NCBI GenBank assembly: GCA_040384445.1
Contig: JAZKJG010000002.1
Span: forward strand, 160,823-224,822
DNA length: 64,000 nucleotides
DNA from: Patescibacteria group bacterium
GTDB lineage: Bacteria; Patescibacteriota; Minisyncoccia; Phycocordibacterales; CAIZLB01
Direction of reading: 5' to 3'
Shown here piece after piece: positions 17,958 through 28,528 of the stretch. Position 1 is the stretch's first letter. Every line of letters begins with the position of its first letter. The notes beneath the pieces are model-generated. The model searched no databases, had not been told where the DNA came from, and saw nothing but the letters and a program-made list of their open reading frames with translations. A program made the translations under genes and the position numbers.

Positions 17958-18752
17958 TTATTTCGCAGCTAACATTTGATCTACGATCTTTTTCATTACA
18001 TCGTATGGTAATGCTCCAAGACCTTGCCCTTGTTCATTTACAAGAGGAATATCTTCACCGTTAAACTGTATTACAGTATAAGGAGTTCCTGCTGCACCTG
18101 CTTTAAGACCTGCTTCGTATGACTCCTTAACCTTTGTTGCATACTTTCCACTGTCAATACATGCTTTAAGTTTTGCTTTATCAACTCCTAGCTTTGATCC
18201 AATCTCAGGTAGAAGTGAAAGATCTAAACCATCATTAGATTTTGTTGTTGAATATAATTCATCAACAAAACTCCAAAATTTATCTTGACCACCAAGTTCA
18301 GCTACACATTCTGTTGCCTCAGCTTCTTTTGCTGCATTTTTATGAAGCGCTTGCTCTCCATATGAAAGAGGGAAATGTCGATACACCCACGCTACTTCGT
18401 CTGCCTTATACTCACTGTGAATTTTTTTCATAGTATCGTGATACACCTTACAGAAAGGACATTCGATATCTGAATATTCGATAATTACAATCTTTGCATC
18501 TTTGTTTCCTCTGATATGATCTGCATCAGTTACTTTGGCGATCTCAAACTCTGGGGCTGCAAGAGCACCTTTTACAAGATCTTGGCCATTACCATCTTTT
18601 TTATTTCCACTTACATAAAGTCCGAAGGCAATAAGTGCACCAGCCACAATAATTGCAATTGGTGTGATTAATTGTTTTTTATCAAAAGTTGATTTTGTTG
18701 AAGTTGCAGGAGTTGAATTTGCTACTTCTGTTTTATTGTATGTTGGTTCCAT
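17958..18752 (-). CDS. DsbA-family thiol:disulfide oxidoreductase, membrane-anchored
   Basis: N-terminal TM. CxxC active site (ECPFCKVYH) in a thioredoxin-fold context. Confidence 0.65.
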   Translation of the reverse strand: MEPTYNKTEVANSTPATSTKSTFDKKQLITPIAIIVAGALIAFGLYVSGNKKDGNGQDLVKGALAAPEFEIAKVTDADHIRGNKDAKIVIIEYSDIECPFCKVYHDTMKKIHSEYKADEVAWVYRHFPLSYGEQALHKNAAKEAEATECVAELGGQDKFWSFVDELYSTTKSNDGLDLSLLPEIGSKLGVDKAKLKACIDSGKYATKVKESYEAGLKAGAAGTPYTVIQFNGEDIPLVNEQGQGLGALPYDVMKKIVDQMLAAK

Positions 18753-20647: not shown

Positions 20648-20747
20648 GAATTATATATACCATATTTAAAGGGGTTTGTGGAAAATTTAGGGATTAGTTT
20701 ATATTTTCTTTTGCTATTAATAATGACTGAAATGGTTTACTTTTCTT

Positions 20748-21872
20748 GTGGCTAAAACACCATTTCAAAAAGATATACATATATTTCTAACAACACTGAT
20801 CGAGAAGGCGATCGCCATGAATGCTTCAGATATTCATATTGATCCTAAGGATAGTTTTGTTCAAATTCGTTTTAGAATTTCTGGAATACTTCATGAAAGT
20901 GGAAGATTGGAATTAGAATATTTGGATTTGTGTATTGGGAAGATAAAAGTTCTGGCTGAACTTCGCTCAGATGTTCATGATAAATCTCAAGATGGAAGAT
21001 TTTACTATATTTCAAATGTAACAGGTGAGCGTATTGATATACGTGTTTCTATAGCACCAACTTTTTATGGTGAAAATTGTGTGATGCGGCTGCTTCGACC
21101 TGAATTGTTGCGGTATCGAACATTTGCGGAACTTGGTATGACAATCGATCAAGTACACAGGTACACTACCTCACTTAAAAAAAGTTCAGGACTAATTATT
21201 GTGGCGGGGCCAACCGGATCTGGGAAAACAAGTACGCTATATACAACGCTGAGGTATCTCGCAAAAGGAGTTGATTCAAGTCATGCATTTTCAGACGAAA
21301 TAGATACTGAGCGAAATATTGTCACGATAGAAGATCCTGTTGAATCTGCAATTCCACGAATTAGACAAATTCAAATACATCCCGATAAAGGCTTTGGATT
21401 TAAGGAGGCGCTCAAAGGAATTTTAAGACAAGATCCAGATGTAATTATGATTGGTGAGATTCGCGATAAAGAAACTGCTCTCGCTGCGATTCAAACTGCA
21501 CTTACTGGTCATCTAGTTCTTGCTTCTATTCATGCTCCAAATGCAGCGTCAATTATTCCAAGACTTATCGACATGGGTATAGAACCATACATGCTTTCAT
21601 CTTCAATTTCTATGATATTGAGTCAGCGACTGATTCGTATGTTTGATTACTCACTTGGATTATATGGAGAACGAAAGGGGGTATTTGAAATAGTTCCGGT
21701 AGATACTGAAATGCGTGAGATGATTCATACAAAAAAGACTCCATATGAGATTGAACAATATTTATCGAAAACAGGTCACACCCTTCTTCGTGATGCATGT
21801 GCAGATATGTATATTCGACATGTAACAACTGAAGAAGAAATTAATCGCATAACACTTGATATATACTCATGA
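20748..21872 (+). CDS. pilB: type IV pilus/type II secretion assembly ATPase (GspE/PilB family, lacks N-terminal domain)
   Basis: Walker A (GPTGSGKTST), Asp box, Walker B and His box region. 374 aa. Confidence 0.75.
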   Translation: MAKTPFQKDIHIFLTTLIEKAIAMNASDIHIDPKDSFVQIRFRISGILHESGRLELEYLDLCIGKIKVLAELRSDVHDKSQDGRFYYISNVTGERIDIRVSIAPTFYGENCVMRLLRPELLRYRTFAELGMTIDQVHRYTTSLKKSSGLIIVAGPTGSGKTSTLYTTLRYLAKGVDSSHAFSDEIDTERNIVTIEDPVESAIPRIRQIQIHPDKGFGFKEALKGILRQDPDVIMIGEIRDKETALAAIQTALTGHLVLASIHAPNAASIIPRLIDMGIEPYMLSSSISMILSQRLIRMFDYSLGLYGERKGVFEIVPVDTEMREMIHTKKTPYEIEQYLSKTGHTLLRDACADMYIRHVTTEEEINRITLDIYS

Positions 21873-22915
21873 AATTAAAAAACAAAGAAGCCAGATCATT
21901 ATGGTACAAGAAAATATTTTTCTATTTGAAATCAGGACAGTCACTTCCTGAGTCGGTACGAACTGCAGCGTTAGATGCTGACAGCTTGTATATCTATGAA
22001 GAATTGATTGATGGTTCGAGGTTTTCAGATGTATGTGAGTTGCCAGAATTAAAAAATACATTCTCCCAAACAGAAGTGTCTTTGCTCCGAGTTGCAGAAC
22101 AAACAGGATCAATGCAATTCGTATGTGGAATTCTGTCTCAAATGTTGAAAGAACAATATGCGCAAGTGCAAAAACTTATTGCTGCACTTATATATCCTGT
22201 ACTGGTGCTTATCATGGCGTGTGGATTGCTGCTCATGATTCTTGTAGGAATTGTTCCAAAAATTGGTCCATTATTTTCTTCAATGAGTACCGTTCCATTT
22301 GCTACACGAATTCTTATTGCAGCAAGTAATCATGTTATATCTTTCTGGTATATCGATATTTGTGTTGGAATAGTTTTGTTGTGTGTGCTGATATATATGA
22401 AAAGAAAAACAACTTATTTTTCATATATTAGTCGGTGGATACAATATATTGCAATCAGAGCACCATATGTACGAGAAGTGTATTTATATTGGTATATCGA
22501 ACGATGGGTGCAAGTTGTTCATATCTCGTTACAGAGTCATGTGTCCTTACTTCAGTCACTTCAGTTTGCACATGAATCTGTTGAAAATCCATATATCCAA
22601 AAAGAGTTTTCAAAAGTAACAGAAGGGGTTCGGGTAGGTCAAACATGTGCCGATTCGCTTGGGCTCGTTGCTCCATTTCTAAAGCAAAAATTAAAAGACT
22701 GGATATCAGTTATTGCATCAGGAGAAAAAACTGGAACACTTCAAGAAGTTTTTGGTGTGAGCAGGGAACATATTGCAGAAAATCTTAAAGATGCATTTGA
22801 TAGGGCACAAAAAATAATTGAACCTATGCTTATTGTATTGGTTGGAATTATGGTTTTGTGTATTTGCTTGGCAATCATTTTGCCTATGTATCAATTAACT
22901 CAATCAGTACAATAA
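21869..22915 (+). CDS. pilC: type IV pilus platform protein (GspF/PilC family)
   Basis: 348 aa polytopic membrane protein. The start overlaps the pilB stop (ATGA). Architecture typical of T2SS-F. Confidence 0.7.
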   Translation: MKLKNKEARSLWYKKIFFYLKSGQSLPESVRTAALDADSLYIYEELIDGSRFSDVCELPELKNTFSQTEVSLLRVAEQTGSMQFVCGILSQMLKEQYAQVQKLIAALIYPVLVLIMACGLLLMILVGIVPKIGPLFSSMSTVPFATRILIAASNHVISFWYIDICVGIVLLCVLIYMKRKTTYFSYISRWIQYIAIRAPYVREVYLYWYIERWVQVVHISLQSHVSLLQSLQFAHESVENPYIQKEFSKVTEGVRVGQTCADSLGLVAPFLKQKLKDWISVIASGEKTGTLQEVFGVSREHIAENLKDAFDRAQKIIEPMLIVLVGIMVLCICLAIILPMYQLTQSVQ

Positions 22916-22916
22916 T

Positions 22917-24077
22917 ATGCATACACAAAAAGGATTTAGTTTAATAGAAGTAATGCTTGCACTCGCGATCTCCGTGATAGTTTTTGTTGCAGTCTTTCAT
23001 TTTGCTGCAAGTATACATACATATGCAAAAAAACATACTGCAACACCTGAGAAATATGTCTCATATCAATACGGTGAACCGTATTGTGGCATGCATAAAA
23101 CGTTGCAAGATATTCATTTCGATACATCAAATCAAATACACTTCCAAGCCTATCTATCTACTTCAACTAGAATTTCAAGTATTCATCAGTTGAACGGAAA
23201 CAGATTTCTTCTGACAACTGATTCTGCATCTACTTCAGAAAGTGATATTTTTCTGTTTGATGTTGATACTCAAAATACGACAGTCACACTCATATCTTCA
23301 CTTGACGTAGGTCCAGGTATTCAAGATGCAAAACTACTAGATCAATATTTATATGTTGCAAATACGAGTGTGAATAGTCACCTTAAAACATTGTATGTTA
23401 CAGAAAATTTAATTTCAGAATTATTTAATGTAAAATTACCATCATTATCATCGAGTGCATCATTACCAAAAAAGTTGGCAATATATGGAAACACATTAAT
23501 CCTTGGATCTGAGAAAAGTAACTCTGGTCCAGAATTGTTTGTGTTTCCTATAGAAGGGGATGGAGTGGTGAGAACTCCTATATATAGTATGGAGATTGAC
23601 GGACAGGCAAATCAGCTACTTTCTAGCTATGGAAATATACTGGTTGCAAATGCTGCAGATCCAGAATTACGAGTGTATAACTCACTATTTAATATCGAGT
23701 TCACATACGATGCGCCTCTAACTCTTGGAAATGGTAAAAGTGTCTTATATAAAGATCCATATATAATCCTAGGGCGTACAGTTGGATCAGGGGAGTTAAG
23801 TCTGTTACTTCAAAAGGGTACCACAACAGAAGTGCTAAAAACGAAACGAACTTATGGAACTGTTGATCATATTCAAATGCTGGATTCAGAAACCATACTC
23901 GCAATGACAGCTAATGAAGATGCTGAGCTACAATTTTGGAATATTCCTAGTTTAGATCACGAAAAAGATATTAATATTCCAGGTAGAGTATCAGCGTACG
24001 AATGTACATCAGAAAATTTGCTATTTATTTCCACAACAATTAATACGGAACCGGTCCTCTTATGGCTAGAAATATAA
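22917..24077 (+). CDS. large prepilin-type protein (class III signal peptide + 350-aa beta-rich domain)
   Basis: MHTQKGFSLIEVMLALAISVIVFVAVF gives a G|F cleavage site and Glu5. The long C-terminal domain may be PilY1/tip-adhesin-like. Confidence 0.6.
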   Translation: MHTQKGFSLIEVMLALAISVIVFVAVFHFAASIHTYAKKHTATPEKYVSYQYGEPYCGMHKTLQDIHFDTSNQIHFQAYLSTSTRISSIHQLNGNRFLLTTDSASTSESDIFLFDVDTQNTTVTLISSLDVGPGIQDAKLLDQYLYVANTSVNSHLKTLYVTENLISELFNVKLPSLSSSASLPKKLAIYGNTLILGSEKSNSGPELFVFPIEGDGVVRTPIYSMEIDGQANQLLSSYGNILVANAADPELRVYNSLFNIEFTYDAPLTLGNGKSVLYKDPYIILGRTVGSGELSLLLQKGTTTEVLKTKRTYGTVDHIQMLDSETILAMTANEDAELQFWNIPSLDHEKDINIPGRVSAYECTSENLLFISTTINTEPVLLWLEI

Positions 24078-24547
24078 CTTATAAAAAAGGATTTACTCTT
24101 ATAGAACTTGTGCTGTACATGGGTGTATTTACCATTCTGGTGGTTGGAATTCTATATACATCAATGTATATACAGAAAGTATTACAAGATTCTGCTGTTC
24201 GATATGAAATTGACGAGATTATATACAGGCAGTTAGCATTACTTCAAAATCACATAACTCTTGCCACTCATATTGAAGTAAGCACAAGTAGTATTCGTAT
24301 GTATTCTCAAAACAGCATTGTCACACAAGAATTAAGAAGTGGTATTTTGTTTATGATATATGAATATGGCAACGGGCAAAAGAAAGAGTTTGCAATATAC
24401 CCAACTATGAAATTTTCGGAGTTTTCGTTTAGAGATAATGAGACAGGGGAGACTTTTGAGACCAAAAATCAACTGAGAGTACAGGTGGATAGAATAGGTG
24501 TGAAAGGAAAATTAATGTCCTTAGAAGAGTATTTCTACACCTATTAA
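24062..24547 (+). CDS. prepilin-type N-terminal cleavage/methylation domain protein (pilin/pseudopilin)
   Basis: MARNITYKKGFTLIELVLYMGVFTILVVGIL. 161 aa. Confidence 0.65.
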   Translation: MARNITYKKGFTLIELVLYMGVFTILVVGILYTSMYIQKVLQDSAVRYEIDEIIYRQLALLQNHITLATHIEVSTSSIRMYSQNSIVTQELRSGILFMIYEYGNGQKKEFAIYPTMKFSEFSFRDNETGETFETKNQLRVQVDRIGVKGKLMSLEEYFYTY

Positions 24548-24585
24548 AATCCCAGATACTATGATATAGTATGCAATATTAACGT

Positions 24586-25878
24586 ATGGCTTCATTTCGA
24601 GACATTGTCTTTTTTATCATCACTTTTTTCTCTGTATATGTTCAGGTTTTTTACTTGGTAACGTTTTTTCGGTATCAACATAAGATCTTGCGACGTACAG
24701 GAAAGGTTTACTTGAAAGAGTATCCTGCGGTAACTATTATAGTGCCTTGTTATGCAGAGGAAAGAACTGTGGAGAAAACAGTACATTCACTCCAGGAACT
24801 CAGATATCCAGAGGATAAGTTACATATTATTTTGGTTGATGACGGAAGTCCTGATAACACATGGCAAAAATTACAAGAGCTAGAAAGTAAGTATTCAAAT
24901 GTTCGTTCATTCACTAAAACAAATGGTGGTAAGCATACATGTTTAAATTTCGGATTAGAGAAGACAGAAACCCTATATGTTGGATGTCTTGATGCTGACT
25001 CACTTGTTCATCCAGAGGCGCTTGTGCGTATTATGTCTTACTTTGAGGGTAATATAAAACTTATGGCAGTGACTCCAACTCTTGTTGTTCATAATCCTAA
25101 ATCACTCGTACAAAGAGCACAGCGGGCAGAGTACAATGTGGGAACATACAATAAAAAAATGATGGGATTTTTAGGGGGTATTCATGTGACTCCTGGACCA
25201 TTCTCTATCTTTAAAAAGGAAGTGTTTGATACAATCGGTCCGTACAAAAAAGCTCACAATACAGAAGATATGGAGATTACGTTTAGAATGCATAGACAAG
25301 GATATTTGATTGATAACTGTAGTGATGCGTATGTATATACTCTAGGTCCTAAAACAATCTATGATTTATATCGTCAACGAGTGCGATGGATTTATGGATT
25401 CATGAAAAATATTATTGACTACAAAGAATTATTTTTTAAGAAAAAGTATGGGACATTAGGTTTCTTTACTCTTCCTTCTGGAATTATTTCTATTATTGCC
25501 GTGATCTTTATGATACTTTTTATTGTCCAAGGCCTTATAGGACCAGCGATTGTATTTTTTGAAAAATTATCTACACTAGGCTTTAATGTGAGTTTTTCAA
25601 ATATATTTAGTGCGCCATCATTTGATTGGTTTTATATTAATACAGAAACAGTTGCGCTTGTTGCATTAGCACTCTACACGCTAGTCCTATTCTCATTTAT
25701 TCTTGGAAAATGGGTATCAAGTAATTCGGAAACAAATTTGCTTGATGCAGTAATATTTTTTGGACTGTACTCTGTCATTGCTCCAATATGGTTATGTAAA
25801 GCATTATGGAATGTTTTGATAAATAGGGAGGACAGCTGGACAGTGGAGATAGACAAACGAGTACGTGAAAATTTATAA
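24586..25878 (+). CDS. processive family-2 glycosyltransferase (cellulose/chitin-synthase-like, QxxRW) with C-terminal TM bundle
   Basis: DDGS..D motifs (IILVDDGSPDNT; LDADS) and Q(R)xRW (YRQRVRWIYGF). N-terminal and C-terminal TM helices. Confidence 0.7.
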   Translation: MASFRDIVFFIITFFSVYVQVFYLVTFFRYQHKILRRTGKVYLKEYPAVTIIVPCYAEERTVEKTVHSLQELRYPEDKLHIILVDDGSPDNTWQKLQELESKYSNVRSFTKTNGGKHTCLNFGLEKTETLYVGCLDADSLVHPEALVRIMSYFEGNIKLMAVTPTLVVHNPKSLVQRAQRAEYNVGTYNKKMMGFLGGIHVTPGPFSIFKKEVFDTIGPYKKAHNTEDMEITFRMHRQGYLIDNCSDAYVYTLGPKTIYDLYRQRVRWIYGFMKNIIDYKELFFKKKYGTLGFFTLPSGIISIIAVIFMILFIVQGLIGPAIVFFEKLSTLGFNVSFSNIFSAPSFDWFYINTETVALVALALYTLVLFSFILGKWVSSNSETNLLDAVIFFGLYSVIAPIWLCKALWNVLINREDSWTVEIDKRVRENL

Positions 25879-25911
25879 ATAACATGATATGCTAACCAGT
25901 AATAAAAATAT

Positions 25912-26694
25912 ATGAGTTCTACAACAGAATTTGAAAAAGAATTTTCTAAAAAAGAAATTGAGCGTATAGAGAAAGTACACTCTGCACCAGGCTTTTCACC
26001 AATGCAATATTTGGTTGTGTTTGTTGTAACAGTGGGATTATTCCTAAGTGCATTTGGACTGAGTAATTATTTGAGTGATAGAAAATTGGATAAAGTAAAA
26101 TATATTCAAGATGATATTGCTATAGATATACTTTCTTCAGAAACTCAATTTGAACTCCTACAGGATATTTCATGTAAAGATGCAGGAGCTTCAGTACTTT
26201 CTTCTGAGCTCAATGACCTTGCACGACGAATTGAATATTCAGAACAATCTATTCAAAACATTGAAGAAGTTACTCGACTTAAAAAGTATTATTCAGTACT
26301 CCAGGTTAAAGATTATATTTTGATGAAAAAGGCTACAGAGCGATGTGGATTGAAAAGTGTGTTCGTATTATATTTCTATACAACCGAAAAGAATTGTGTA
26401 GAATGTGCACGACAAGGATACGTACTTACAGAACTACGAGACAAATATCCAGACCTACGAGTGTACTCTTTTGATTATGGGTTAGATCTTGGAATCATTC
26501 AGACACTGATTCGAACGTATAAGCTTTCAGATACAGAGCTACCAACACTTATAGTGGAAGGAGATGTGCTTACTGGATATCATGATTTAGAAGCAACAGA
26601 GGCTTTGTTGCCTGAGAAGTTTAGAAAAGAGCAGGCTGAGTTAATGAATGCAAAAGTAGCAACCTCTACCGCCTCTACTTCAAAGAAGAACTAA
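25912..26694 (+). CDS. membrane-anchored protein with thioredoxin-like CxxC region
   Basis: N-terminal TM. A beta-strand then CVEC (VFVLYFYTTEKNCVECARQ), resembling a thioredoxin-fold active site. Confidence 0.3.
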   Translation: MSSTTEFEKEFSKKEIERIEKVHSAPGFSPMQYLVVFVVTVGLFLSAFGLSNYLSDRKLDKVKYIQDDIAIDILSSETQFELLQDISCKDAGASVLSSELNDLARRIEYSEQSIQNIEEVTRLKKYYSVLQVKDYILMKKATERCGLKSVFVLYFYTTEKNCVECARQGYVLTELRDKYPDLRVYSFDYGLDLGIIQTLIRTYKLSDTELPTLIVEGDVLTGYHDLEATEALLPEKFRKEQAELMNAKVATSTASTSKKN

Positions 26695-26696
26695 AT

Positions 26697-27791
26697 ATGC
26701 CTCCAACAAACAAACCATATTTTGTTGGTTTAGATAATCTCAGAGCTTACGCATTTGCACTCGTTTTTTTGTCGCACATGTATTTCAATTTTTTTCCTGC
26801 AAATGAAGTATATAGAAAAACATTTGCACACGGAGAAATAGGGGTTCAAATCTTTTTTGTATTGAGTGCGTTTCTTATTATGTATCTGTCACTTCGAGAA
26901 TTTTCGAAAACAGGAACTTTTTCAGTTCTGCATTTTTTTAAAAAAAGAATTCTTAGAATTTGGCCAGTTTACTTTTTGGTAGTTGCAGTAAGTTATCTCA
27001 TCTACATTCTTTCCGGCACAACCGCGCAAATGAGTTGTACATACATGTTCTTATATTTTATGGGAAATACATGTATGATTCAAGATTTTGCACATGTGGG
27101 AGGGGCACTCACAATATCGCCACTGTGGTCAGTTTCTGTTGAACAACAATTTTATACAATTTTTCCACTTTTGTTTTTGTTGGCTATTGTTGTTTCAAAA
27201 AAGTATGCAGCCAAGTATAAACTATTGTTTTGTATAATAGCTTGTATCATTCCGTTAGTGGCCATTATCTACGCACTATATATTAGATATCTACACGTAG
27301 GAAATTGGAGATACACTGATTACTCACTCGCGTCATCTATTCCATCGCTTGTTTCTGGAATATGTCTTGGGTATATTATGTACGCACGGTTTAAGATTAT
27401 AGATCATATAAGATCTTACTCTAAAACATACGCGACTGTTGGAGCACTTATTTTTGCATGTGGAATAATATTAAAAACAACATATCCATGGGGAGCATTA
27501 CTATATGTAGTGCCAATTATTGGTTCAGTGTTGATTTATATTATTCTGGCAACAAAAGAGAGGGTGGTGTCGGAAGTTGTACAGAAAACTTCTGTTATAG
27601 AATACATGGGACGTATTTCATACGGACTATATGCCTACCATATGTTTGCTGTTGTAATTGTGCAAAAGTTTTTGTTTCCAACATACTCAAATATGCCACT
27701 TTTGGCGAGTTTGATGACGCTTGCGATCACGATTGTCATAGCTCATATTTCGTACAAGTACATGGAGTCTTGGTTTTTAAAATTTAAATAA
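26697..27791 (+). CDS. acyltransferase family 3 (OatA-like O-acyltransferase) membrane protein
   Basis: 364 aa with ~10 TM helices. Conserved N-terminal region (GLDNLRAYAFALVFLSHMY) typical of Acyl_transf_3. Confidence 0.7.
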   Translation: MPPTNKPYFVGLDNLRAYAFALVFLSHMYFNFFPANEVYRKTFAHGEIGVQIFFVLSAFLIMYLSLREFSKTGTFSVLHFFKKRILRIWPVYFLVVAVSYLIYILSGTTAQMSCTYMFLYFMGNTCMIQDFAHVGGALTISPLWSVSVEQQFYTIFPLLFLLAIVVSKKYAAKYKLLFCIIACIIPLVAIIYALYIRYLHVGNWRYTDYSLASSIPSLVSGICLGYIMYARFKIIDHIRSYSKTYATVGALIFACGIILKTTYPWGALLYVVPIIGSVLIYIILATKERVVSEVVQKTSVIEYMGRISYGLYAYHMFAVVIVQKFLFPTYSNMPLLASLMTLAITIVIAHISYKYMESWFLKFK

Positions 27792-27808: not shown

Positions 27809-28528
27809 ATGCATCCTATTACCCAAGCAATCGAACAGTTGACTGATATCTGTGCAAAATACGGATTCGTCCAGTTTTCTGGTCCTGAAATAGAAACAGA
27901 GTGGCATAATTTTGATGCACTTCGAGTTTCAAAAGATCACCCAGCCAGAGATGCGCAGGATACTTTTTGGTTAGGTGAACAGTATAAAGAAGAACTAGCA
28001 AGTGTTGGACCACAACGAATGCTTCCGCGAACTCACACATCAGGTGCGCAAATTCGTAAAATGATGGAAAGTAAGCCTCCATTTAAAATTATTTCAGCAG
28101 GAAAAGTTTTTAGAAATGAAGCAACAGATGCAACTCACGAAGCAGAGTTTTACCAACTCGAGGGATTATCTGTGGGAAAAAATATTTCAATCTCTGATTT
28201 AAAAAATACTATCACTGATATTTACAAAGAATTTTTTGGTCCAGATATTCAGGTGCGATTTCGAGAAAGTTTTTTTCCGTTCGTAAAACCAGGTATGGAG
28301 ATAGATATTTTTTGGAAAGACAGATGGCTCGAAGTGTGTGGAGGGGGAATGGTTCATCCCGAAGTTCTAGAACATGGATTTAAAGATCATATGACAAAAG
28401 AAGAAATTTCTGAGTTAAGTGGATTTGCTTTTGGAATGGGGATTGACCGTCTTGTAATGCTTAAGTACGGAATTGACGACATTCGAGATATGTACTCAGG
28501 AGACCTTCGATTCTCACGATGGTTCTAA
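27809..28528 (+). CDS. pheS: phenylalanyl-tRNA synthetase alpha subunit (short form, catalytic core only)
   Basis: Class II core motifs (FRNEATDATHEAEFYQLEG; GMVHPEVL). 239 aa. Confidence 0.8.
   Translation: MHPITQAIEQLTDICAKYGFVQFSGPEIETEWHNFDALRVSKDHPARDAQDTFWLGEQYKEELASVGPQRMLPRTHTSGAQIRKMMESKPPFKIISAGKVFRNEATDATHEAEFYQLEGLSVGKNISISDLKNTITDIYKEFFGPDIQVRFRESFFPFVKPGMEIDIFWKDRWLEVCGGGMVHPEVLEHGFKDHMTKEEISELSGFAFGMGIDRLVMLKYGIDDIRDMYSGDLRFSRWF

Follow-up and report, generated by a model that had tools for sequence, protein, structure and literature searches.

Pilus genes beside a GT2 synthase cassette: one unit or two adjacent envelope modules?

Seven genes run back to back on the forward strand at positions 20748-27791 of the 64 kb stretch of DNA analysed here (the window) and raise the question whether a type IV filament and a membrane glycan synthase are encoded as one functional unit, as a sequence-only reading of this DNA had proposed. 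The features that bear on it are the following.

17958..18752, - strand: DsbA-like thiol-disulfide oxidoreductase, membrane-anchored, CPFC (Pfam Thioredoxin_4 and DSBA)
20733..20741, + strand: TGGTTTACT, tentative candidate -10 region of the pil transcription unit, 15 nt before the pilB GTG
20748..21872, + strand: PilB/GspE-type assembly ATPase, 374 aa (Pfam T2SSE, 298 bits)
21869..22915, + strand: PilC/GspF-type platform protein, 348 aa (Pfam T2SSF, two stretches)
22917..24077, + strand: modular prepilin, 386 aa, class III leader MHTQKG/FSLIE (N_methyl)
24062..24547, + strand: 161-aa prepilin, leader MARNITYKKG/FTLIE (N_methyl)
24562..24570, + strand: TGATATAGT, extended -10 promoter-like element inside the 38-nt gap (24548-24585) before GT2
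24586..25878, + strand: processive membrane GT2 synthase, 430 aa, "type 1" cassette (Pfam GT2 families)
25912..26694, + strand: bitopic membrane protein (CxxC protein), helical domain and C-terminal thioredoxin fold, CVEC, cis-Pro, one TM segment
26697..27791, + strand: acyltransferase-3 (AT3), AT3 domain only, no SGNH extension (Pfam Acyl_transf_3, 103 bits)
27809..28528, + strand: pheS, short form, 239 aa (Pfam tRNA-synt_2d, 285 bits)

All seven open reading frames were confirmed, and the identities given to them from the sequence alone hold on the evidence listed. Their junctions range from -16 to +38 nt (in order, -4, +1, -16, +38, +33 and +2 nt), in agreement with the gaps of at most 40 nt described earlier. 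Such tight packing is not distinctive in the window: the median gap between same-strand genes is 38 nt, and 56% of same-strand gaps measure 40 nt or less. The run extends beyond 27791 into pheS (+17 nt), pheT (+37), gyrB (+80) and gyrA (-29), so that the right-hand boundary of a seven-gene unit is arbitrary.

Pilus genes

The ATPase, whose gene begins with GTG, aligns with residues 181-453 of the 564-position NCBIfam PilB model; because this alignment begins at position 181 only, the N-terminal ~180 residues are missing, as expected for the PilB-like protein without the usual N-terminal domain that had been described. Its best solved relatives in the PDB are PilB/GspE/PilF cores (205-218 bits versus 91 for PilT), and the tetracysteine motif is absent from its sequence, which holds only three Cys. 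The platform gene shares its first 4 nt with the end of pilB; its product has three hydrophobic segments by simple hydropathy and is matched below cutoff by the GspF and ComGB models. A short ATPase without N-terminal domain and a platform of ~340 aa recall ComGA and ComGB of the Com pilus in monoderms, whose models align end to end with scores under their cutoffs (225 versus 300 and 117 versus 240); unlike in the Com pilus, no ComGC-type major pilin, ComEA or ComEC is encoded near the window pil genes. Upstream of pilB, a TGTTyTAAT-like element occurs at the site equivalent to the candidate -10 region in 10 related loci; in the window this element was not picked up by the consensus scan.

The 386-aa prepilin joins an alpha1 helix (residues 9-41) to a head confidently modelled as a 7-bladed beta-propeller (pLDDT 93.8), and carries two conserved cysteines, C57 and C363. 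The beta-rich domain, of which it had been asked whether it might be an adhesin, would on this model be an adhesin-type head carried by a pilin stem. The protein belongs to a small family of its own with 63 members and otherwise has distant LVIVD-repeat relatives only. Functional modules grafted onto a pilin stem are likewise found in S. sanguinis PilB and PilC, following the modular-pilin concept (PMC8179133), and in the minor pilin PilX2 of the saccharibacterium TM7x, a heptabladed beta-propeller needed for efficient host binding (PMC11623550); the 386-aa protein differs from PilX2 in its canonical prepilin leader, reportedly missing in the latter. PilY1 of Pseudomonas and Myxococcus also ends in a 7-bladed beta-propeller and sits at the pilus tip together with minor pilins.

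The 161-aa prepilin, which has a weak ComGE-type match (NCBIfam), is encoded by a gene that begins 16 nt before the end of the 386-aa gene, and almost every related locus keeps such an overlap (-13 to -29 nt, mostly -13 or -16). Because of it, the small prepilin is probably translationally coupled to the larger one as its partner pilin. These two proteins bear the only N_methyl prepilin leader motifs in the 64 kb. A Pfam scan of the other 49 window ORFs of at least 110 aa, which could overlook divergent small PilN/O-like proteins among unannotated ORFs, found no Peptidase_A24, PilM/N/O, PilT or secretin, in keeping with the lack of a prepilin peptidase, PilM/N/O and secretin reported for the window.

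The synthase cassette

The DDG, DAD, TED and QRxRW motifs of the GT2 are invariant among 25 homologues, which bears out its initial description as a processive GT2 with QRxRW, and simple hydropathy gives it one N-terminal and at least three C-terminal hydrophobic segments. BcsA and HAS are its nearest solved membrane synthases, with profile alignments over BcsA residues 11-299 and HAS1 residues 89-312. In common with BcsA-BcsB and the class I hyaluronan and chitin synthases it is a processive GT2 of the kind that couples polymerisation to translocation, and its CxxC neighbour resembles BcsB in being a single-TM partner with a predicted extracytoplasmic domain; however, the window GT2 is much smaller than BcsA, and the pair is devoid of a PilZ domain or BcsB-like carbohydrate-binding domains.

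The top NCBIfam match of the GT2 is PgaC_IcaA, at 177 bits under an equivalog cutoff of 422, and PgaCD of E. coli and IcaADBC of staphylococci likewise possess a membrane GT2 of ~410-440 aa with D, DxD, ED and QxxRW. A small bitopic partner is encoded directly after the GT2, as are PgaD and IcaD, but the window-type partner is an unrelated thioredoxin fold of 220-260 aa with four invariant Cys. The AT3-family gene in the cluster recalls IcaC yet is optional in window-type cassettes; the role of PgaB/IcaB has a counterpart in the GlcNAc de-N-acetylase domain borne by the CxxC partner of some relatives, which is of the PIG-L and not the CE4 type. In contrast to these systems, no c-di-GMP-binding part was detected in the window cluster.

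No Pfam family matches the CxxC protein significantly. Its AlphaFold2 model (pLDDT 73.7) matches thioredoxins in Foldseek (TM 0.65-0.7), residues C88, C145, C162, C165 and P211 do not vary among 93 sequences, and the family counts 736 clusters at 50% identity. It shares an N-terminal membrane anchor, Trx fold, CxxC and cis-Pro with ResA/TlpA/PedC-like proteins, from which it differs by an additional helical domain that holds another pair of invariant Cys, and by a gene fixed beside a glycan synthase instead of cytochrome or bacteriocin genes. One GT2-CxxC fusion protein is known, on a singleton contig and possibly an assembly error. Rare CxxC-PIG-L fusions form two clusters from several samples and point to a GlcNAc-type polymer.

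The AT3 gene begins 2 nt past the CxxC gene in the window. It is optional and occurs on either side of the GT2-CxxC pair: it follows CxxC in the window and in locus L081, precedes GT2 in six loci, and is missing from at least six lineages as well as from 78 of the 80 group A loci, the species-level representatives of the GT2 relatives. In those loci where AT3 precedes the GT2 promoter-like element, it falls within the pil-side unit.

Promoter-like elements and gene order in relatives

The interval 24547-24586 had been singled out earlier as the place where a promoter or terminator might separate the two parts. No terminator-like site was found between the pil and GT2 parts, but the extended -10 element lies in this gap, with 15 nt between its hexamer and the GT2 ATG. 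Promoter calls are made here at the level of the motif. The extended -10 motif stands 17-24 nt upstream of GT2 in 73 of 79 distant relatives (chance rate 4.3%) and before GT2 in 9 of 10 clade members; it precedes CxxC in 3 of 79 loci and rpoD in 1 of 59, and was found before pilC, the 386-aa gene or the small pilin gene in none of the 10 clade loci scanned. Within the window, 14 of 56 genes have it 15-24 nt upstream, and the DsbA-like gene has an element of its own, TGGTATAAT, 15 nt ahead of its start codon. In related loci pheS always comes next after the cassette, at a distance of 5-18 nt, and the motif scan found no extended -10 motif before it (0 of 10 clade loci); for these two reasons pheS probably shares the transcript of the cassette. 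A plain TATACT hexamer upstream of pheS means that this gene may also have a promoter of its own.

Of the suggested synteny of pil, GT2 and acyltransferase genes, the pil-GT2 part stands within the clade and fails outside it. The pil genes are followed by GT2 in all 22 related loci with both sides visible, down to 34% pilin identity and with gaps of 18-57 nt in clade loci, and every known copy of the window-type pilus module has the synthase pair next to it. However, PilB/PilC occur near GT2-CxxC in 0 of 80 other Paceibacteria species (flanks examined, 50 loci with the full 10 kb upstream), and AT3 in 2 of 80. The order of hisS, pheS, pheT and gyrB is also largely kept within the clade, and adjacency alone therefore says little on function. 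The block from pilB through CxxC to pheS is the most rearrangement-resistant part of the clade region, the AT3 gene being its only insertion, and the hisS-pilB, pheS-pheT and pheT-gyrB junctions are interrupted repeatedly.

In most species the GT2-CxxC pair sits among rpoD, tsf, rpsB and mreB, and its mean column identity of 65-67% is housekeeping-like. CxxC comes next after GT2 in every clade locus and in 79 of the 80 group A loci. A DsbA-like homologue stands immediately upstream of GT2, in divergent orientation, in about 63-67 of 80 related loci; the DsbA-like gene is the ancestral divergent neighbour of the pair, from which an exonuclease, hisS and the pil genes now separate it in the window. 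GT2 and CxxC always stay side by side, and where the type changes it changes for both. Two types of the pair, 37-41% identical, stand behind pil modules that are 84-86% identical. Between the window and locus L099, PheS, HisS and PilB are 87, 80 and 84% identical, versus 37-38% for GT2 and 37-40% for CxxC; between L086 and L100 the values are 92% (PheS) and 86% (PilB) versus 38% (GT2) and 35% (CxxC). Types 1 and 2 are each monophyletic in 100/100 bootstraps. These sequence comparisons indicate that, behind pil genes that are nearly the same, one deeply divergent type of GT2-CxxC has been exchanged for the other.

Neighbours or one machine

We consider it fairly probable that the locus holds two self-contained envelope modules side by side, neighbours and not a co-evolving machine. 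The first (20748-24547) would be a compact type IV filament set of ATPase core, platform and two coupled prepilins, the latter most likely forming a complex that serves as the adhesive tip of a filament or primes it; genes elsewhere would supply the major pilin, the peptidase and the remaining parts. The second (24562-27791) would be a core Paceibacteria unit, in which the PgaC/IcaA/chitin-synthase-like GT2 is predicted to polymerise a sugar, probably GlcNAc, at the cytoplasmic face and to thread the polymer through its own membrane domain. The K-rich linker of the natural fusion suggests that the CxxC protein is the outer-face partner of the GT2, and it may serve as a co-synthase or redox-sensitive polymer handler; the optional AT3 would O-acylate the polymer. 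The promoter-like element of this second module probably drives pheS as well, and read-through from the pil genes is possible, since no terminator lies between the modules. On this view, the pil block, with hisS and the exonuclease, would have come between the DsbA-like gene and GT2 in the clade ancestor; from then on it would have passed down by vertical inheritance, and GT2-CxxC(-AT3) would have undergone replacement or sorting between the two divergent types.

That the pilB to CxxC-pheS block resists rearrangement would fit selection for co-transcription and is a point for the original proposal of one co-regulated seven-gene unit, a composite organelle of adhesive pilus and (acylated) exopolysaccharide for attachment to a host or surface. 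The kept pil-GT2 order, the short gaps without terminator and the fact that no gene other than AT3 was ever inserted between the parts speak for it too, and pili are known to cooperate with adhesive polysaccharides in Caulobacter (Tad pili and holdfast) and Myxococcus (T4P and EPS). Against it stand the 80 of 80 other species with no pil gene near GT2-CxxC and a conserved promoter-like element before GT2, the swapping of two cassette types behind the same pil block, an order conservation that also includes pheS and, less strictly, hisS, pheT and gyrB, and the facultative AT3; the fused unit thus has partial support, and we regard it as unlikely. We give still less credence to a reading without exopolysaccharide, in which the CxxC and DsbA-like proteins would be general extracytoplasmic disulfide machinery and the GT2 would make a housekeeping membrane glycolipid or cell-wall glycopolymer. 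The housekeeping-like conservation and surroundings of the pair, the probable co-transcription with pheS in the clade and the two conserved Cys of the propeller pilin, which would need an oxidase, are consistent with it; the complete processive-synthase motif set of the GT2, its inseparability and joint type switching with CxxC, and the GT2-CxxC and CxxC-PIG-L fusions that link the CxxC protein to glycan chemistry argue otherwise. Candidate substrates of such disulfide machinery would be the pilins and other Cys-containing surface proteins.

Direct mechanistic coupling, with the GT2 glycan decorating the pilins and AT3 acetylating it, or a pseudopilus pushing the polymer through the wall, appears very improbable. 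Six loci do have AT3 on the pilin side, after the small pilin gene and ahead of the GT2 promoter-like element, and in Neisseria the AT3-family enzyme PglI O-acetylates pilin glycans; but no oligosaccharyltransferase, flippase or initiating transferase was found in the cluster, the GT2 belongs to the synthases that translocate their own product, and hundreds of species have the GT2-CxxC module without these pilins.

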